Of a stretch of 24,956 nt of DNA, positions 4,498 to 22,337 are shown in pieces. How positions within the stretch are numbered: the stretch's first letter is position 1; the number at the start of each line of letters is the position of its first letter. The notes below the pieces were generated by a model that had not been told where the DNA came from, ran no database searches, and worked only from the letters and a program-made list of their open reading frames with translations. The translations under genes were made by a program, and so were the position numbers. Location: IMG/VR virus record IMGVR_UViG_2923292180_000001; one strand, written 5' to 3'. The stretch is from a virus (Duplodnaviria > Heunggongvirae > Uroviricota > Caudoviricetes).

Positions 4498-4680
4498 ATG
4501 CGAAAGTTCAAAATTATTATTGAAACGGGAATAGCTGGTGGAGATTTTGAGGATGTATTCGAAGTGGACGATGACGCAACACCTGAGGAAATTCATGACG
4601 GAGCATAAGAAATTTTCTTTAACTACTGCAATTACTCATACCACGAAATAAAAGACGATGAGGAAGAACAAAGTGGCTGA
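4498..4680 (+). pseudogene. Short ORF broken by an in-frame TAA (35 codons, TAA, 23 codons); possible decayed prophage gene
   Basis: ATG 4498; MRKFKIIIETGIAGGDFEDVFEVDDDATPEEIHDGA, TAA at 4606-4608, then EIFFNYCNYSYHEIKDDEEEQSG and TGA at 4678-4680; preceded by AGGAGG plus an 18-nt GAAA-loop hairpin. Confidence 0.3.
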
Positions 4681-4845
4681 TTTTTGTTAAGCTAAATATA
4701 ACATCAGTTTTGAAGAGCGGGATGAACTATTAATGGACTATGGTGAGTTACGCGGTGGAAGTGCTGCTGATGTCGAATCCTAGCGTGATGACTATGAAGC
4801 GGGAAAAACTCCGGTCGAAGCATATTGTGATGAGTGGGGCGATGA

Positions 4846-5133: not shown

Positions 5134-5387
5134 ATTAATGGATTAACTATGTCGGTTAAACGACCAGCCAACTGAAAAAGCGGAAACCTGATTACAGGTT
5201 GCCAGATAAGGCAATGAGCTACCTGGCGCGGAACGGACTGATAAGTATGGGGAATGTTTTACGATGAACCTTTAGACTAAAGAGTTTGTAACGCTATGTA
5301 AGTGATTTTTTCTGGTTTAGATATTTATATGTCCGGCCAAATTGAGGTGTGTTTAAATGTAATTGCACATTGATTGTAGGAGGAATA

Positions 5388-5567
5388 ATGAAAAACGCAT
5401 TGCAGTTTTTGTTTGTTGCGTTCTGGTTGTTCGCATCATGTATGCCCATCATCTTCACAGCAAGGTATATGGAAAAAGTTGATGTTTTGATATTAATATT
5501 TGGATATATAAATGCCCTTTTTTTAGGGGTGTTCATGGCGGTCATGTGCATTGAATACTGGCGGTAA
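5388..5567 (+). CDS. Small hydrophobic protein (59 aa, two predicted transmembrane segments) in an AT-rich islet
   Basis: ATG 5388 preceded by SD-like TAGGAGGA at 5377-5384; product MKNALQFLFVAFWLFASCMPIIFTARYMEKVDVLILIFGYINALFLGVFMAVMCIEYWR; surrounding DNA is markedly AT-rich. Confidence 0.45.
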   Translation: MKNALQFLFVAFWLFASCMPIIFTARYMEKVDVLILIFGYINALFLGVFMAVMCIEYWR

Positions 5568-5840
5568 ATACAGCGAACTCCATTGGTTTAGTTGGATATT
5601 TACTGTGCTGGACAAAAACGGTTTGCGGGGAAATCTTAGTTAAGTAGAATGACTGCGGGTGCTTGAGGCTATCTGCCTCGGGCATGGACACCAACGGCAG
5701 ATAGAGAAAAGCCCCAGTTAACATTACGCGTCCTGCAAGACGCTTAACATTAATCTGAGGCCAATTTCATGCTAGACACATGTAGGTTAGCCTCTTACGT
5801 GCCGAAAGGCACGGAGAAGCAGGCTATTGTTAACACCAAG

Positions 5841-7458
5841 CTGTAATGTCCCCTTTGAACCATTCTAAAATGTCCCCAGACAATTCTCTGGGGGATTTTT
5901 CATGATCAAAGAGACTGTTACGATGAGTCATAAGGAACTCCACCGACTTCAGATTATTCAGGAACAAGCTGCGGCACGCATTGGCATTTCTATTCGGCAG
6001 GTTAAACGTCTGGTGCAACGGTATAGAAATGAAGGGCCTTCTGGTCTGGTTTCCCACCGACGTGGAAAGCGTCCTAATAATTCCTTTTCTACTGAATTCA
6101 GAGCAACAGTAATTTCACTCCTCAAAGGCCGTTACGCTGATTTTGGACCTACGTTTGCGTGCGAAAAATTGCGCGAGATACACGGTTTATCTTTATCCGT
6201 TGAAACTCTCAGAAAGTGGATGATAGAAGAGGGGTTATGGCGTGAACGCCGTCGTAAAATTGCCCGTATATATCAACGCCGCATGCGACGACCATCTTAC
6301 GGTGAACTGATCCAGATTGATGGCTCACCTCATGACTGGTTTGAAAATCGAGGCCCCAGATGTACACTGATCGTTTTCATTGATGATGCCACCAGTGCGT
6401 TGATGGCGTTGCGTTTTGTGCCTGCTGAAACAACCCGGGCTTACATGGAAACCCTCCGGGGTTACCTTAATGATCATGGCGTACCGCTCGCTCTCTACTC
6501 TGATAGACACAGTATATTCAGGGTAAATAACCCAGAGCGGGAAGGTGAGCTGACCCAGTTCACTCGTGCGATAAAGACACTGGGCATCGAGCCAATCCAT
6601 GCCAACAGCCCGCAGGCAAAAGGGCGGGTAGAGCGCGCCAATCAGACACTACAGGACAGGCTGGTCAAAGAAATGCGGCTTCAGAATATCAGTGATATTG
6701 AAACAGCAAATGCATGGTTGCCGACCTTTATTGAAGCCTATAACAACCGGTTCGCTACGTCGCCTCGTACTACTGATAATGCTCATCTTGATGTGCACCA
6801 TTCTGAAGAGGAACTGGGTTATATCTTCAGCCTACAGGCGAAGCGCGTTCTGTCTAAAAATCTCACTTTCCAGTACAAAAGCAGTGCGTTTCAGGTACGC
6901 AGTGAGGGCCGGGGATATCGACTTAGGCATTCGGTTGTTACTGTATGCGAGAACTTTGACGGTGAAATTAACGTTCTGTATGACGGGAAAGCGCTGGGCT
7001 GGGAAAAGTATGTTGATGGCCCGGAGCCTATACCACTGGATGATGAAAAGAGTGTCCATGAACGAGTGGATAATGCCCGTATTGATTTACGCTCAAAATA
7101 CTATGTTAAACCTAAAGCTGACCATCCCTGGCTTACGCGCCGAACGCAAAGTCATCAGCAAGTTAAGCCCCCGAAGTTACCTAAAAAGAAGCCTGATCCC
7201 GATAAAAAAGATTGAAACCAAGATCGATTCGGTTGAGTGCATATCCATTCATAGGGTAGATTCTTAAGTCGCGTTTCTGGTGTTCATTTTCGGGTGGTTT
7301 GTTACTTGTTTTACCGGGGATATGCCAGAAACGCGCTGAGTCAGTCTGGGCGGTGCGCGTAATGAGGCGTTATGGTAAATAGCCTATGCTAATGTCCGCT
7401 AAGAGCAAGAAGCGGAAGTTGGCAGTTTTGTGGACTGTCCCCACAAAAGTGACTACAG
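5841..7458 (+). mobile_element. Insertion sequence carrying the ISNCY-like transposase; boundaries approximate
   Basis: Single transposase ORF flanked by non-coding arms with short palindromes (CCCCAGA..TCTGGGG near 5875-5893; TTTGTGG..CCACAAA near 7427-7449). No convincing terminal inverted repeats or target duplication could be defined by eye. Confidence 0.3.
5902..7215 (+). CDS. DDE (rve-type) transposase, ISNCY/IS1202-like
   Basis: 437-aa ORF with N-terminal helix-turn-helix (ISIRQVKRLVQRY) and integrase-core signature (..DGSPHDWF.., ..YSDRHSIF.., ..SPQAKGRVERANQTLQD..). Family assignment is from memory. Confidence 0.75.
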   Translation: MIKETVTMSHKELHRLQIIQEQAAARIGISIRQVKRLVQRYRNEGPSGLVSHRRGKRPNNSFSTEFRATVISLLKGRYADFGPTFACEKLREIHGLSLSVETLRKWMIEEGLWRERRRKIARIYQRRMRRPSYGELIQIDGSPHDWFENRGPRCTLIVFIDDATSALMALRFVPAETTRAYMETLRGYLNDHGVPLALYSDRHSIFRVNNPEREGELTQFTRAIKTLGIEPIHANSPQAKGRVERANQTLQDRLVKEMRLQNISDIETANAWLPTFIEAYNNRFATSPRTTDNAHLDVHHSEEELGYIFSLQAKRVLSKNLTFQYKSSAFQVRSEGRGYRLRHSVVTVCENFDGEINVLYDGKALGWEKYVDGPEPIPLDDEKSVHERVDNARIDLRSKYYVKPKADHPWLTRRTQSHQQVKPPKLPKKKPDPDKKD

Positions 7459-7610
7459 AAATAGTTGCAATTCATAATTGATCATGGGTTGTCAGTTAAA
7501 CTCGTGGCGATTTAAATAGACTAATTGGGAGTGCGTCCATTACTTATATCTTGTAATGTTAACTATCAGAAATGATACAAAGATAATATGTCTTTAAAGA
7601 AAAGGCTGAT

Positions 7611-7637
7611 GGCGAAAAGTGGCCCGATGAGGGCCAC
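7611..7637 (-). terminator. Rho-independent terminator downstream of flxA
   Basis: Perfect 7-bp stem GTGGCCC/GGGCCAC (7619-7625, 7631-7637) with 5-nt loop, followed on the minus-strand transcript by UUUUCGCC; 15 bp beyond the flxA stop. Confidence 0.55.
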
Positions 7638-7651
7638 AATACGGCTGTCAC

Positions 7652-7984
7652 TTAGACGTAAATATCAATGGTGCCAGCGGTATTTGTATCGTCTTTTTTC
7701 TCTTCTTTTTTATCAGGCTGAACTGTCGCGTCTTCATTCTTTTTCTCTGCCTGCTGCCTTAACAACTGCTCCAGTTGAGCCCAGAGGCTTTCAATTTGCT
7801 TCTGTACCAATGCAGCCATTTCTTTTTTCTGCTGTGTCGTCATCCCCTCTTCCGATGAGATTTTCCCAAGCTTTTCAGTCAGCACCTGAATTTGTCTTGT
7901 GATTTTGGCTATTTCTGATGTTCCTTCCGGGGCGGAGTTGTTTGAAATAACGGTTGAGGTATTTCCCTGAATTGTGACAGACAT
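7652..7984 (-). CDS. flxA: FlxA (sigma-28-dependent prophage protein)
   Basis: 110-aa product MSVTIQGNTSTVISNNSAPEG...TIDIYV recognised as FlxA; a canonical sigma-28 promoter lies immediately upstream. Confidence 0.9.
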   Translation of the reverse strand: MSVTIQGNTSTVISNNSAPEGTSEIAKITRQIQVLTEKLGKISSEEGMTTQQKKEMAALVQKQIESLWAQLEQLLRQQAEKKNEDATVQPDKKEEKKDDTNTAGTIDIYV

Positions 7985-8006
7985 AGATTTCTCCTTTTAA
8001 AAAAGC

Positions 8007-8033
8007 ACTATCGGCATGCACAAAAAAATCTTT
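8007..8033 (-). promoter_or_regulatory. Sigma-28 (FliA) promoter of flxA
   Basis: Minus-strand sequence TAAAGATT-N11-GCCGATAG (-35 at 8026-8033, -10 at 8007-8014) matches the FliA consensus TAAAGTTT-N11-GCCGATAA with correct spacing; sits 23-49 bp upstream of the flxA ATG. Confidence 0.75.
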
Positions 8034-8186
8034 AATCGTATTTCTTGTGTCATTAATTGTTTGATGTTCAGATTGTTTTCCTCGCGGGCTGGCGCGCCTC
8101 AGAAAGTAAAGCTTGTTGACAGGGGTAAACGTTCGGCAATAATTTTCTGCCGCATGCGGGTGTTGCATAAAACGTGTTACGTTCCT

Positions 8187-8492
8187 TTATCGACAGGTCA
8201 GGTCACCGCTCACCCGCCGACGAGAAAGCAACACTGACATGCTAAAGCAAAAAATAGATGAATAAGTTGAGTTGTGCATATGTAGCCTGACCGTCACAAA
8301 GTATATGGTGTCTGTACCAGTAAGATGATGGCCGGACTCTTTAAAAACGAGCTGACCTGCACAATACAGGATGGACTTAGCAATGGCTGCTCCTGGCACA
8401 AAGCGGACAGTGATCACCGTTCTTACGACTACTTTCTGACTTCCTTCGTGACTTGCCCTAAGCATGTTGTAGTGCGATACTTGTAATGACAT
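8187..8492 (-). CDS. ydfV: Hypothetical prophage protein YdfV-like (101 aa)
   Basis: ORF of the length and position expected between flxA and relB in Qin; its start codon overlaps the relB operator, so the true start and expression are uncertain. Confidence 0.45.
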   Translation of the reverse strand: MSLQVSHYNMLRASHEGSQKVVVRTVITVRFVPGAAIAKSILYCAGQLVFKESGHHLTGTDTIYFVTVRLHMHNSTYSSIFCFSMSVLLSRRRVSGDLTCR

Positions 8493-8504
8493 TTGTAATT
8501 ACAA
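8481..8504 (+). promoter_or_regulatory. relBE operator (relO-like inverted hexad repeats)
   Basis: TTGTAATgacaTTTGTAATTACAA immediately upstream of the relB SD and ATG (8517); the TTGTAAT/ATTACAA repeats are those of the RelB-RelE operator. Confidence 0.6.
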
Positions 8505-8516
8505 GAGGTGTAAGAC

Positions 8517-8756
8517 ATGGGTAGCATTAACCTGCGTATTGACGATGAACTTAAAGCGCGTTCTTACGCCGCGCTTGAAAAAATGGGTGTAACTCCTTCT
8601 GAAGCGCTTCGTCTCATGCTCGAGTATATCGCTGACAATGAACGCTTGCCGTTCAAACAGACACTCCTGAGTGATGAAGATGCTGAACTTGTGGAGATAG
8701 TGAAAGAACGGCTTCGTAATCCTAAGCCAGTACGTGTGACGCTGGATGAACTCTGA
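8517..8756 (+). CDS. relB: RelB antitoxin
   Basis: 79-aa product MGSINLRIDDELKARSYAALEKMGVTPSEALRLMLEYIADNERLPF... recognised as RelB; stop overlaps relE start (TGATG). Confidence 0.95.
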   Translation: MGSINLRIDDELKARSYAALEKMGVTPSEALRLMLEYIADNERLPFKQTLLSDEDAELVEIVKERLRNPKPVRVTLDEL

Positions 8757-9043
8757 TGGCGTATTTTCTGGATTTTGACGAGCGGGCACTAAAGGAATGG
8801 CGAAAGCTGGGCTCGACGGTACGTGAACAGTTGAAAAAGAAGCTGGTTGAAGTACTTGAGTCACCCCGGATTGAAGCAAACAAGCTCCGTGGTATGCCTG
8901 ATTGTTACAAGATTAAGCTCCGGTCTTCAGGCTATCGCCTTGTATACCAGGTTATAGACGAGAAAGTTGTCGTTTTCGTGATTTCTGTTGGGAAAAGAGA
9001 ACGCTCGGAAGTATATAGCGAGGCGGTCAAACGCATTCTCTGA
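8756..9043 (+). CDS. relE: RelE mRNA interferase toxin
   Basis: 95-aa product MAYFLDFDERALKEWRKLGSTVREQLKKKLVEVLESPRIEANKLRG... recognised as RelE; translationally coupled to relB. Confidence 0.95.
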   Translation: MAYFLDFDERALKEWRKLGSTVREQLKKKLVEVLESPRIEANKLRGMPDCYKIKLRSSGYRLVYQVIDEKVVVFVISVGKRERSEVYSEAVKRIL

Positions 9044-9114
9044 ACCAAAGCATGACATCTCTGTTTCGCACCGAAGGTGACACTTCTGCTTTGCGTTGAC
9101 AGGAGAAGCAGGCT

Positions 9115-9270
9115 ATGAAGCAGCAAAAGGCGATGTTAATCGCCCTGATCGTCATCTGTTTAACCGTCATAGTGACGGCACTGGTAACGAGGAAAGACCT
9201 CTGCGAGGTACGAATCCGAACCGGCCAGACGGAGGTCGCTGTCTTCACAGCTTACGAACCTGAGGAGTAA
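9115..9270 (+). CDS. hokD: Hok-family membrane toxin HokD (RelF); below the ORF-track size cutoff
   Basis: 51-aa ORF MKQQKAMLIALIVICLTVIVTALVTRKDLCEVRIRTGQTEVAVFTAYEPEE: single transmembrane segment plus conserved Hok C-terminus; immediately downstream of relE. Confidence 0.85.
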   Translation: MKQQKAMLIALIVICLTVIVTALVTRKDLCEVRIRTGQTEVAVFTAYEPEE

Positions 9271-9339
9271 GAGACCCGGCGGGGGAGAAATCCCTCGCCA
9301 CCTCTGATGTGGCAGGCATCCTCAACGCACCCGCACTTA

Positions 9340-9370
9340 ACCCGCTTCGGCGGGTTTTTGTTTTTATTTT
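9340..9370 (+). terminator. Rho-independent terminator of the relB-relE-hokD operon
   Basis: AACCCGC-TTCG-GCGGGTT hairpin followed by TTTTGTTTTTATTTT, about 70 bp after the hokD stop. Confidence 0.7.
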
Positions 9371-9486
9371 CAACGCGTTTGAAGTTCTGGACGGTGCCGG
9401 AATAGAATCAAAAATACTTAAGTAGCGCGCAGGGATAAGAGGGATGGTCCCTTAAAGGGGAGAGCTAATTATCCGGAAGGATTCTG

Positions 9487-12534: not shown

Positions 12535-12684
12535 AAAAATTCCTTAATACTGATAACTTGGCGCACTATACACACGTTCCTGAAGAAAGCTATAGTTTTT
12601 TGATGGGGTTGAAGATGGCTGGATGTCTAAAATAAACATTGCTTCATATGTTCAACTATGCGTTAATGATTGCGTCGGTTTGAA

Positions 12685-12834
12685 GAACAGACGATATACG
12701 AAGTAGTTTACTAAAGCAGTTCTCATTTCAGGTGTTATTCACTTATTCCTTCTTTGAGTCTCTCCAATTAAGTACGAAGTCGTTTCTGTTATGCAAACCA
12801 TTTATGCCGAAAGGCTCAAGTTAAGGAATGTAGA
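12685..12834 (+). promoter_or_regulatory. cspB 5' untranslated leader with cold-box-like element and cspA-type upstream box
   Basis: AACAGACGATATACGAAGTAGTTTACTAAAGCAG resembles the cspA cold box (TGACGTACAGACCATTAAAGCAG); GCCGAAAGGC lies just upstream of the SD (AAGGAATG) before the cspB ATG, as in cspA. Recalled from memory, not aligned. Confidence 0.4.
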
Positions 12835-13050
12835 ATGTCAAATAAAATGACTGGTTTAGTAAAATGGTTTAACGCTGATAAAGGTTTCGGCTTTATTTCT
12901 CCTGTTGATGGTAGTAAAGATGTGTTTGTGCATTTTTCTGCGATTCAGAATGATAATTATCGAACCTTATTTGAAGGTCAAAAGGTTACCTTCTCTATAG
13001 AGAGTGGTGCTAAAGGTCCTGCAGCAGCAAATGTCATCATTACTGATTAA
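12835..13050 (+). CDS. cspB: Cold-shock protein CspB
   Basis: 71-aa product [71 protein letters not shown] with RNP1/RNP2 motifs. Confidence 0.95.
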
Positions 13051-13331
13051 AATTCATCGCTCGTCTGTATACGATAACGAAGAAGGCTGATGCCTGAGTA
13101 GAGATACGGACAGAGTAGTGAATATTGGATCTCTTTAATAAAAAGTAAGGAGGTCCAATACATGAAACAATGGCTAGCATATTTGGCAAAATCTTAATCA
13201 GGAAAAGTATGCTAACCATTGTGGTGAAGTGCAGGTTTGCTGCATGAATAGTTTTACAGCAGAAGCTAACTGCTGGCATGGCAAAACAAAGTGCGTAAGT
13301 GGATGACTCCCACAAAAAGCACCACAATCTC

Positions 13332-15359: not shown

Positions 15360-15721
15360 GGTAATATTAAATCGGAACATTTACATCGCGGAATGTAAAA
15401 TTTAAATAAAAAGGACTCTTCCATGAGCCAAAATTCCTGAAATCTTAAGGGTAAGATAAAAGGTCTTAATCAGAATGACACGTTTTATTAATAAATAAAG
15501 CCATTCTTTCATTGCTGTGTTTTTCTTTACAAAAGTAATCCTTGCTATGGGTGGTTAATCATGCGTTAATGGTGTTCTGGTTTGTTACAAATTTATCTGA
15601 AGCAGTCATTGTTATAATTTTATTATTTGTACCTCTTGAGATTTCCTTGTTGGTTTTTCTCTCTGATATTTTTTTTCGGACCATTCTGCCCAAGGGCTAA
15701 TTTCTTCAAAAGGTAATAATT

Positions 15722-15934
15722 ATGTCTAACAAAATGACTGGTTTAGTGAAATGGTTTAACCCTGAAAAAGGTTTTGGTTTCATCACGCCGAAAGATGGCA
15801 GCAAAGATGTGTTTGTCCATTTCTCAGCAATTCAGAGCAACGATTTCAAAACATTAACTGAGAATCAGGAAGTTGAATTTGGTATTGAGAACGGACCTAA
15901 AGGTCCTGCCGCTGTTCATGTAGTGGCGCTTTGA
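15722..15934 (+). CDS. cspI: Cold-shock protein CspI
   Basis: 70-aa product [70 protein letters not shown]; long AT-rich leader upstream. Confidence 0.95.
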
Positions 15935-16138
15935 GGTAGACAATATTACAAACCATATTCACTTTAGATGCCCGTGTTGTCATGGTTCCCAGTATAGAAC
16001 ATCATCTTTTGATGTTTCTGACATGAATCCTTTCGGGGCAAAATGTATCTTTTGTAAATCAATGATGATTACATTTGATAATATTTCACAATACTTAAAT
16101 GCCAGCCGTCTGTCGTTGGATTTAAAAAAGTGAAAATG

Positions 16139-20799: not shown

Positions 20800-21074
20800 C
20801 ATTTGTTTCAGGTGGTTCCAGTGGTGCTCCGGGAAGTGGATCACCTGATTATTCTAAATACAGTGTTAACACTTCTTCTGCAGGCGCTCATACGCACTCT
20901 GTATCGGGTACTGCTGCAAGCGCAGGTGCACACGCATATACTGTCGGTATTGGTGCTCATACGCACTCCGTTGCGATTGGTTCACATGGACATACCATCA
21001 CCGTTAACGCTGCTGGTAACGCGGAAAACACCGTCAAAAACATCGCATTTAACTATATTGTGAGGCTTGCGTAA
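20766..21074 (+). CDS. stfQ: Side tail fibre (Stf) C-terminal fragment, 102 aa, with HxH repeat motifs
   Basis: ..[63 protein letters not shown] matches the lambda Stf C-terminus; the ATG at 20766 lies in J-derived sequence; stop overlaps the tfa start (TAATG). Confidence 0.75.
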
Positions 21075-21649
21075 TGGCATTCAGAATGAGTGAACAACCA
21101 CGGACCATAAAAATTTATAATCTGCTGGCCGGAACTAATGAATTTATTGGTGAAGGTGACGCATATATTCCGCCTCATACAGGTCTGCCAGCAAACAGTA
21201 CCGATATTGCACCGCCAGATATTCCGGCAGGCTTCGTGGCTGTTTTCAACAGTGATGAGGCATCGTGGCATCTCGTTGAAGATCATCGGGGTAAAACGGT
21301 TTATGACGTGGCTTCCGGCGACGCGTTATTTATTTCTGAACTCGGTCCGTTACCGGAAAATGTTACCTGGTTATCGCCGGGAGGGGAATATCAGAAGTGG
21401 AACGGCACAGCCTGGGTGAAGGATACGGAAGCAGAAAAACTGTTCCGGATCCGGGAGGCGGAAGAAACAAAAAACAGCCTGATGCAGATAGCCAGTGAGC
21501 ATATAGCGCCGCTTCAGGATGCTGTGGATCTGGAGATCGCAACGGAGGAAGAAACCTTGTTGCTGGAAGCCTGGAAAAAGTATCGGGTGTTGCTGAACCG
21601 TGTTGATACATCAACTGCACCGGATATTGAATGGCCAGCACTGCCGTAG
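21074..21649 (+). CDS. tfaQ: Tail fibre assembly protein Tfa
   Basis: 191-aa product [71 protein letters not shown]... is nearly identical to lambda Tfa from memory. Confidence 0.9.
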
Positions 21650-21746
21650 GGTAAAACATATAAATTCTATAATTAGATGTATCTCTCCATTTACGGCAAG
21701 GAAGGGGGCTTGGAAGACGTAAAGCATCTCACACCGAGATTATTTT

Positions 21747-22337
21747 TTATATGTCAGGTGTCTGAAGTTTTGCTTTGGCTCTTAAAATGGTTTGCCGCGA
21801 GGTTTTGAATTCCCGGGCAATGGCACTTATACTTACACCTGACTTAATTCGTTCGAATACCACCTGTTTCTGTTCTTCATTTAACACAGGTGGTCGACCA
21901 AAACGTTTCCCTGCGCCGCGGGCTCTTACTATCCCGGAATGAGTGCGTTCAAGTAAAAGGTCTCGTTCAAATTCAGCGACTGCTGAAATTACGTGCATCA
22001 TCATTTTTCCTGTTGGACTGGTCAGGTCAATGCCCCCCAATGCTAAGCAATGCACTCTGATACCTGTTTCGGTCAGTTGTTCCACTGTTTTCCTGATATC
22101 CATTGCATTACAACCAAGGCGATCCAGTTTTGTCACAATCAATTGATCACCACATTTCAGGCGAGCAAGCAACCGGTTAAAACCAGGACGCTCACTGGTT
22201 GCTGCTGAGCCGCTAATGTGTTCTTCGATTATTTGCTGAGGTTTGATTTTAAAACCTGCACTTTCGATTTCCCGGCGTTGATTTTCGGTGGTCTGATCCA
22301 GCGTTGATATCCGACAGTAAGCAAAAATTCGAGACAT
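21747..22337 (-). CDS. pinQ: Serine DNA invertase of the Pin/Gin/Hin family
   Basis: 196-aa product [29 protein letters not shown]... has the catalytic Ser motif (YCRIST) and a C-terminal helix-turn-helix; convergent with tfaQ. Confidence 0.9.

Follow-up and report, generated by a model that had tools for sequence, protein, structure and literature searches.

In Escherichia coli K-12, the genes relB, relE and relF (hokD) of the Qin prophage form the relBEF operon, whose co-transcription was demonstrated by northern blots and whose relF portion accumulates as the most stable fragment of the mRNA (PMC3598666). The transcript is under the control of the operator relO, RelB and RelE (PMC2812701). 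RelB is a ribbon-helix-helix repressor that acts via relO with conditional cooperativity, and RelE cleaves mRNA in a ribosome-dependent manner (PMC2812701; PMC3507626). Hok-family toxins are also encoded by type I hok/mok/sok toxin-antitoxin (TA) loci, including R1 parB and hokW/sokW of Stx phage Sp5, the latter an experimentally working TA system (PMC8621323). K-12-based literature ascribes the origin of hokD to a 'genomic rearrangement' (PMC12214031). Here, we analyzed the relB-relE-hokD operon at positions 8481-9370 of a stretch of Caudoviricetes DNA of 24,956 nucleotides (nt), IMG/VR record IMGVR_UViG_2923292180_000001, which as a whole is called the window below. Our comparison makes it very likely that the insertion of a transposon into the start of a hok gene created the relBE-hokD arrangement, and that relBE is a module of a hok-targeting transposon.

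The window contains an element of 3,274 bp (5828-9101) that lies between two copies of a 15-bp direct repeat, begins with TGTTAACACC... and finishes with ...TGCGTTGACA. Its boundaries and transposase gene are as follows.

5813 to 5827, no strand assigned: left copy of the target-site duplication, GGAGAAGCAGGCTAT, a perfect direct repeat.
5828 to 5877, no strand assigned: left terminal inverted repeat (IRL), TGTTAACACCAAGCTGTAATGTCCCC..., which also has a subterminal second repeat, ..AATGTCCCC.
5902 to 7215, plus strand: transposase gene, IS1202 family, ISEsa1 type; 437 aa, uninterrupted; NF033594 ISNCY_2, 456 bits against a cut-off of 250.
9072 to 9101, no strand assigned: right terminal inverted repeat (IRR), ...GGTGACACTTCTGCTTTGCGTTGACA, the sole site complementary to IRL inside the element.
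9102 to 9116, no strand assigned: right copy of the target-site duplication, GGAGAAGCAGGCTAT, a perfect direct repeat.

The two ends read TGTTAAC... and TGTCAAC..., both with a second subterminal ..ATGTC.. block. IRL agrees with the reverse complement of 9072-9101 in 22 of 30 positions, whereas none of 200,000 random pairs from the window agreed as well; its sequence is identical in every other copy of the element that we compared. According to Siguier et al., IS1202-family ends start with TGT and carry a conserved block near position 20 (bioRxiv 10.1101/2022.12.17.520857); the ends of this element fit that description, being imperfect inverted repeats of ~22-30 bp with both features. The transposase, named 'IS1202-like element ISEsa1 family transposase' in RefSeq, has Pfam helix-turn-helix (HTH) domains, a weak rve_3 match and the catalytic residues D140, D201 and E244. 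Its Q251 stands at E+7, and a glutamine in that place is the signature of the IS1202 family described by Harmer and Hall (PMC10132070). On the right side, 58 nt separate the relE stop from the last base of the element, and the adjoining duplication copy provides hokD's Shine-Dalgarno sequence (SD; GGAG, 9102-9105) together with the A and T of its ATG. Every relBE-hok junction that we checked in other replicons likewise had the 15-bp repeat and the inverted repeats.

The element splits a hok locus in two. In an Rfam scan of the whole window, RF01794 ('sok') had no match between relE and hokD; its sole match, at 5657-5828, lay 3.3 kb upstream on the strand of hokD and spanned all 157 model positions (104.1 bits; gathering score 59; E=6e-23). 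The alignment spans the hok mRNA leader from its 5' end, GGGUGCUUGAGG, through the hok AUG, and the final codon in the window is AUU where the model has AUG, indicating that the insertion broke the hok start codon. The parts of the divided locus are listed below.

5623 to 5650, plus strand: putative promoter of the ancestral hok mRNA, read by eye (-35 TTGCGG, 16-nt spacer, -10 TAGAAT).
5657 to 5827, plus strand: orphaned hokD mRNA leader (RF01794), contiguous with hokD in intact loci.
5657 to 5668, plus strand: tac element, within the orphan leader.
5757 to 5760, plus strand: mok SD, GAGG, within the orphan leader.
5769 to 5846, plus strand: truncated mokD' open reading frame (ORF), 25 aa, which enters IRL and then meets a stop.
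5788 to 5798, plus strand: dcb/TAGCCTCTTAC box, within the orphan leader.
9115 to 9270, plus strand: hokD (relF), Hok-family membrane toxin, 51 aa; Pfam HOK_GEF PF01848, 1.2e-23.
9320 to 9332, plus strand: fbi element of the hok 3' untranslated region (UTR), complementary to tac at 5657-5668 with one bulge and now 3.6 kb away from it.
9339 to 9365, plus strand: intrinsic terminator of the ancestral hok mRNA, now serving the relBEF transcript; 7-bp GC-rich stem at 9339-9356 and a T-run to 9365.

The hok promoter, tac, the mok SD and start and the dcb box thus lie to the left of the element, and a copy of the SD, the hokD coding sequence, fbi and the terminator lie to its right. The putative hok promoter ends 6 nt upstream of the first base of the leader; the consensus scan missed it because its -35 hexamer agrees at only 3 of 6 positions. 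After in-silico excision of the element, the ATG at 5769 shares the frame of hokD and opens a 70-codon mok-type ORF. By analogy with R1 hok/sok, a Sok target and an opposite-strand sok gene are expected in the orphan leader; the consensus scan located no sok promoter in the window or in one intact locus. Tac and fbi are now on different transcripts, and their pairing is found only in the reconstructed hok mRNA of 415 nt, whose predicted fold (-175.8 kcal/mol, z=-7.4) contains the canonical pairing of 5' tac with 3' fbi.

An earlier note on this DNA had raised the question of whether hokD retains mok/sok-like control and had proposed a search for mok overlap and fold-back elements around it. 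Judging from the layout of the locus, hokD is without mok/sok control in cis, because the promoter, tac, the mok SD and start and the expected Sok-target region have been severed from it by the transposon; these leader parts are found 3.3 kb upstream, at 5657-5827. In the vicinity of hokD there is neither a mok nor a leader match, and of the fold-back elements only fbi (9320-9332) remains beside it.

Uninterrupted versions of the locus are common. Joining 5600-5827 to 9117-9400 gives an excised sequence of 512 nt, which is 98.8% identical to single contiguous loci annotated hokD, and 3,826 of 5,426 complete E. coli genomes have a place covering at least 80% of it. A 2.5-kb excised version is contiguous in H99 at 96.1% identity, in the order hypothetical genes, hokD, rem and ydfU, and at least 80% of it is covered in 882 genomes. 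The phages mEp460 and HannyBb carry the uninterrupted locus at 98.9% identity, annotated MokW, and Stx2 phages carry it at ~90%. Once excised, the window locus resembles the type I systems R1 parB, hokW/sokW of Sp5 and MokW of mEp460 in its Hok peptide, leader, in-frame mok, tac/fbi elements and terminator. In contrast to them, the locus as it stands is split by 3,274 bp, and hokD is placed on the relBE promoter, its mRNA having neither coupling to mok nor a Sok target. Together, the target duplication, the terminal inverted repeats and the empty sites argue for an insertion origin of the junction. As the three-gene 'operon' straddles the boundary between transposon and target, it represents a junction and not an ancestral unit.

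The transposon side of this junction consists of relBE and its control region.

8453 to 8481, plus strand: putative relBE promoter, read by eye and unlisted by the consensus scan (-35 TTGCCC at 8453-8458, 17-nt spacer, -10 GATACT at 8476-8481).
8481 to 8504, plus strand: relO operator, TTGTAATGACATTTGTAATTACAA, with two 12-bp half-sites and four RelB hexads ([A/T]TGT[A/C]A); it overlaps the promoter.
8517 to 8756, plus strand: relB antitoxin gene, 79 aa; Pfam RelB PF04221, 1e-32; NCBIfam NF008412, 133 bits against a cut-off of 96.
8756 to 9043, plus strand: relE toxin gene, 95 aa; PF05016, 2e-13; TIGR02385, 54.7 bits against 27.9.

The relB gene lies directly upstream of relE, with its stop and the relE start sharing one base at 8756, and a spacer of 72 nt separates relE from the hokD ORF. 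In every letter, relO is identical to the operator that Overgaard et al. analyzed in 2009 (PMC2812701). RelE has all of the residues K52, K54, R61, R81 and Y87 and is identical to the K-12 protein WP_000323025.1. Moreover, the region 8400-9480 is 100% identical to E. coli K-12 MG1655, C600 and many more strains, where relB, relE, hokD and ydfV are annotated; with such identity to an annotated region, a chance match is not a concern. To go by this sequence match, the relB-relE-hokD operon itself is already known. The window and K-12 Qin relBEF share relO, promoter, genes and terminator, whereas the left part is gone from K-12; the window retains the element in full together with the orphan leader, and these reveal the origin of the arrangement.

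These results also settle what the earlier note had read from the letters. Its relO, relB, relE, hokD and terminator are all where it had placed them, as both the sequence and the ORF list confirm, and its identification was right: the genes make up the relBEF operon of a Qin-type prophage, and the third of them is a genuine member of the Hok family. The co-transcription of relB, relE and hokD that it assumed agrees with the northern blots from K-12. hokD was omitted from the ORF track for the sole reason that it is shorter than 60 aa, and the ORF at 9115-9270 aligns with HOK_GEF over the entire profile (positions 1-42 of 42, E=1.2e-23) and thereby withstands the refutation that the note had named, a lack of Hok family signature residues on alignment. 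The note's three-gene operon in a prophage is real, but its relBE part belongs to a transposon inside the prophage and not to the prophage backbone.

The complete 3.27-kb unit is present at 99.8% identity on Salmonella, Enterobacter and E. coli plasmids, including IncI1 and IncF plasmids. We read the junctions of copies on plasmids, in a transposase-based scan of species-representative genomes, and in exact right-end scans of viral and metagenome contigs. The IncI1 plasmid copy is inserted in the pndA locus beside trbA, with the duplication TGGAGGGGCTATGAT; the IncF plasmid copies are inserted in an R1-type hok beside psiA/psiB, with the duplications GGAGAAGAAGGCCA or GGAGAAGAAGGCCATG; and a Kluyvera copy is inserted in a hokE-like gene, with the duplication GATATGCTGACAAA. 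At such hok sites, the duplicated bases are the local hok SD-to-ATG segment, and the element is flanked by the local leader (..TAGCC(T/C)...GGCAA) on its left and by the local Hok coding sequence on its right. Duplications of 13-16 bp, most commonly 15 bp, were seen at more than 12 sites. The 42 distinct right flanks comprise ~24 with a hok SD, an ATG and a Hok-like peptide, 4 tandem arrays and ~15 others, and the hok-type flanks include at least 12 different Hok N-termini. On the left, ~24 of the 32 distinct flanks are hok leaders.

This distribution could in principle follow from near-random insertion, with the excess of hok sites reflecting survival, where disarming of the toxin is harmless or beneficial, or ascertainment. 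Such an explanation accommodates the non-hok sites that do occur (L011, L019, L039 and L079) and the location of hok loci on plasmids and prophages, which are heavily sampled. However, we consider it unlikely on the following evidence. Where both flanks of a hok-site insertion are known, the left cut mostly comes immediately behind GGCA(A/C); in the exceptions L015, L026 and L023 it is shifted by 1-5 nt. All hok-site insertions but one share the same orientation, whereas inactivation of hok would tolerate any position and orientation over the ~400-bp locus. GGCAA or GGCAT directly precedes the duplication in three non-hok sites as well. Furthermore, tandem arrays in hok sites (L006, 2187-2253; L023; L232; L240) show the right end, one copy of the duplication and the left end of a second element, which suggests repeated use of one target with its signal on the leader side. 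Oriented insertion beside a specific sequence (dif/xrs) is also documented for IS1202 relatives (PMC10132070; bioRxiv 10.1101/2022.12.17.520857). The GGCA(A/C) cut, the shared orientation and the tandem re-use of sites thus favor target selection by the transposase over selection after random insertion.

An ancestral integrated operon, in which hokD is a deliberately co-regulated second toxin and Hok-type control still lies nearby, is less plausible still, and we regard it as improbable. The co-transcription of the three genes (PMC3598666), the toxicity of over-expressed HokD (bioRxiv 10.1101/2025.08.07.668861) and the retention of the relBE-hokD arrangement in 1,161 E. coli genomes are in keeping with it. 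Its claim about the origin is nevertheless already contradicted by the duplication, the inverted repeats and the empty sites, which indicate insertion, and the mok start and the expected Sok target are 3.3 kb off, beyond the element. In addition, relBE also adjoins unrelated hok genes and non-hok DNA, and some copies are without the 5' part of hokD: in L116 and three more viral or metagenome loci, the right end runs straight into mid-hokD sequence (..CTGCGAGGTACGAATCC..), hokD having lost its first ~30 codons by deletion. In these loci, hokD is evidently dispensable for keeping relBE. A junction formed by illegitimate or homologous recombination during prophage decay (a 'major genetic rearrangement') matches the term used in the literature (PMC12214031) and the state of K-12, where the left end is absent, homology begins only at 7031 and the repeats and duplication are accordingly invisible, but it is highly improbable given that the window and hundreds of genomes retain both ends, the duplication and an uninterrupted transposase ORF, and that the whole 3.27-kb unit recurs at 99.8% identity on Salmonella and Enterobacter IncI1/IncF plasmids with differing local duplications.

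The homology of K-12 to the window starts inside the transposase gene, and by alignment the hok leader, the left repeat and 1.2 kb of the transposase are missing from K-12. With the left half lost, the repeats and the duplication were not visible there, and work on K-12 could therefore speak only of a rearrangement. The K-12 gene ydfW (intK) corresponds to the last 49 codons of the transposase ORF (7066-7215 in the window; 4667-4816 in the K-12 locus, L002). The RefSeq annotation of strain 160-11H1 divides the uninterrupted 437-codon ORF in two, a 'partial ISNCY transposase' and ydfW.

Returning to the transposon insertion, we propose the following course of events. A lambdoid Qin-type prophage would have carried an ordinary hok/mok/sok locus of the hokW/mokW kind. 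An IS1202-family transposon, consisting of IRL, an ISEsa1-type transposase, passengers, relBE and IRR, would then have entered the hok translation-initiation region and duplicated 15 bp that reach from the SD up to the T of the ATG. The many insertions point to the hok leader as the feature that the transposase may recognize, with the conserved TAGCC(T/C)...GGCAA just 5' of the duplicated bases. Since no relBE terminator precedes IRR, transcription from the relBE promoter runs through IRR into hokD and stops at the old hok terminator, the first one on its way, and this read-through gives the relBEF mRNA as known from K-12. hokD would now be transcriptionally under relO, as a passenger of relBE freed from Sok and mok coupling. 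By analogy with the identical K-12 proteins, RelB is expected to repress via relO and RelE to cleave mRNA on the ribosome once RelB, the Lon-labile antitoxin that neutralizes it, is degraded. relBE may thereby serve as the transposon's own addiction or stabilization module, and landing on hok would give the element access to plasmids and prophages and disarm the resident killer. That relBE is the built-in addiction module of a hok-leader-targeting transposon, which captured the toxin of another TA system, and that this account is both correct and unpublished, we put forward with moderate confidence; in the structural part of it taken alone our confidence is very high.

The copies that we compared share a common architecture. 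A left arm of ~1,583-1,629 bp, comprising the left repeat, the transposase gene and ~200 bp, is conserved, and so is a right arm, while the region between them varies. The remaining features of the window copy are given here.

7652 to 7984, minus strand: flxA, a passenger gene of the window copy; Pfam FlxA, 2e-14.
8187 to 8492, minus strand: ydfV ORF, of which only the first ~38 codons lie within the conserved right arm, overlapping the relBE promoter.
8389 to 9101, plus strand: conserved right arm, 713 bp, with the relBE promoter, relO, relB, relE and IRR.

All 13 other Enterobacterales copies examined have this right arm, with 90-99.7% identity and at a constant distance from the end, and RelB and RelE are 93-100% identical across these copies, whereas the cargo differs. 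The variable middle consists of flxA and ydfV in the window; elsewhere, it holds cytochrome b561 and a CDF cation-efflux protein (with a nested IS110 or IS30), a LysR regulator with YdcZ exporters, or a DUF2158 protein. flxA, known in K-12 as a FliA-dependent Qin gene, is missing from the other copies, and L009, L019 and L026 bear metal-efflux or exporter genes instead. With sizes of 3.3-7.3 kb, relBE and variable cargo, the Enterobacterales copies are neither a simple insertion sequence (IS; 1.3-2 kb) nor a one-passenger transporter IS. Simple relatives of 1.36-1.44 kb with a 15-bp duplication were found in Chromatiales metagenome-assembled genomes (L034 and L035). Beside the transposase gene, a hairpin with a T-run at 5873-5894 stands directly upstream of its ATG and holds the likely SD (GGGGGA) in its 3' arm; this hairpin could block or mask read-through from the hok promoter into the transposase.

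Among described elements, the dif/xrs-targeting ISAjo2/ISAba32 group of the IS1202 family resembles this one in its DDE residues with Q at E+7, its N-terminal HTH and its imperfect TGT repeats, but its target is dif instead of the hok ribosome-binding region. The duplication of 16-17 bp in the ISTde1 group is near the 13-16 bp of this element. Unlike IS1202 members, however, the element measures 3.3-7.3 kb and carries a fixed type II TA module at its right end and variable cargo. Tn3-family transposons with toxin-antitoxin pairs, reportedly described by Lima-Mendez et al. (mBio 2020), share with the present element a type II TA pair that is an integral, conserved part of the transposon; they differ in having an unrelated transposase family, and the present element has no resolvase. 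Tn3-family TA transposons are not known to target another TA system.

Several points weigh against our account. First, L022 (Citrobacter portucalensis) lies in a hok start region in the reverse orientation, its left end lying against GGAGAAGAAGGCCATG in reverse complement; this copy may have inserted the other way round or been inverted later. Second, ~15 of the 42 right flanks are not hok, and at least L011, L019 and L039 show clean 15-16-bp duplications elsewhere, indicating that the specificity for hok is a preference and not absolute. Third, some hok-site copies may share ancestry, which makes the count of independent events approximate. Fourth, the case for transposition is comparative, mobility being suggested by 99.8%-identical copies at differing sites. 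Fifth, the probably poor translation of hokD from the relBEF mRNA is a folding prediction: in the predicted fold of 9044-9365 (z=-2.7), its SD and start lie partly within conserved hok hairpins, and there are no mok ribosomes to open them.

Finally, the published limits of ISEsa1 conflict with those proposed here. Harmer and Hall give ISEsa1 as 1,609 bp, with terminal repeats matching at 15/22 and no target duplication (PMC10132070). The window transposase bears the ISEsa1-family name, and the left arm of 1,583-1,629 bp matches the listed length; in contrast to the listing, the element has a 13-16-bp duplication when ended after relE. The ISEsa1 listed in ISfinder is probably the left arm only, since the right end after relE yields good inverted repeats and a 13-16-bp duplication, a reading taken from the matching lengths and not from the ISfinder sequence. 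A search within the element for a second, internal right end that would give a 1.6-kb IS found none, even with 11 mismatches allowed in 30.

We found no literature linking ISEsa1, IS1202 or ISNCY with relBE, relE, hok or pndA, although an earlier description (e.g., Pedersen & Gerdes 1999 or Fozo et al. 2008) is possible. The two papers defining the IS1202 family mention neither hok, relBE nor any toxin gene (PMC10132070; bioRxiv 10.1101/2022.12.17.520857), and a 2026 preprint surveying Hok loci mentions nearby IS elements only in general terms. Our account would explain mechanistically why relBE precedes a Hok gene without Hok regulation, for which the literature offers only 'genomic rearrangement'. 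It would make the best-studied relBE locus transposon cargo, which bears on the debate over whether chromosomal TA systems are stress regulators or selfish stabilizers of mobile DNA. It also suggests a target specificity that is new for the IS1202 family, namely the translation-initiation region of a type I toxin. If true, the insertion silences the resident hok killer of a plasmid or prophage and sets relBE in its place, providing a natural case in which a TA-bearing element disarms another addiction system on plasmids (IncI1 pndA, IncF hok) and on prophages; this could affect plasmid stability and competition. The 40-year-old oddity 'relF' and the orphan gene ydfW would then be by-products of the insertion. 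Two corrections of annotation would follow: ydfW is a transposase fragment, and ISEsa1 is probably mis-delimited in ISfinder.

Several further candidates around hokD were rejected. A TTG-initiated ORF at 9096-9263, which overlaps hokD in another frame, was considered as a remnant of mok. Its start lies within IRR, it matches nothing in Pfam, and its frame is closed by a stop in the reconstructed locus, where the real mok is the in-frame ORF from the ATG at 5769. In the predicted relE-hokD fold, the segment 9092-9103, with the end of IRR (GCGUUGA), pairs with fbi at 9320-9332 as if mimicking tac; this is probably a coincidence, because the pairing is missing in at least 5 of the 7 other hok contexts folded (L026 pairs near its 3' end). 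An outward hybrid promoter at IRR was likewise dismissed: a perfect TTGACA stands at the end, and no -10-like hexamer follows 16-18 nt downstream. In the hokD 3' UTR, the Rfam matches to isrK (25 bits, 9279-9360) and rsmX (20.5 bits, 9255-9360) fall far under the gathering score and were taken as chance.

Some minor observations concern hokD and its surroundings. The Tyr46 codon of hokD, TAC, is followed by G and forms a TACG motif within 9250-9260; in K-12, low-level A-to-I editing of this site is reported to change the Tyr into Cys (PMC12214031). Upstream of the hok leader, an adjoining ORF for a hydrophobic peptide of 72 aa (5349-5567) is kept in prophages with an uninterrupted hok locus. 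The prophage in the window is defective, as several of its genes are truncated or frameshifted, among them the exonuclease, DUF977, DUF7167, terminase and TipJ genes. Between a tail-fibre assembly remnant and pinQ, an IS3 copy is inserted at 21069-22231 (Rfam IS009 at 21417-21615). Upstream of cspB and cspI, at 12674-13066 and 15576-15961, there are two 5' UTRs of the cspA thermoregulator type (Rfam RF01766; 159 and 113 bits).

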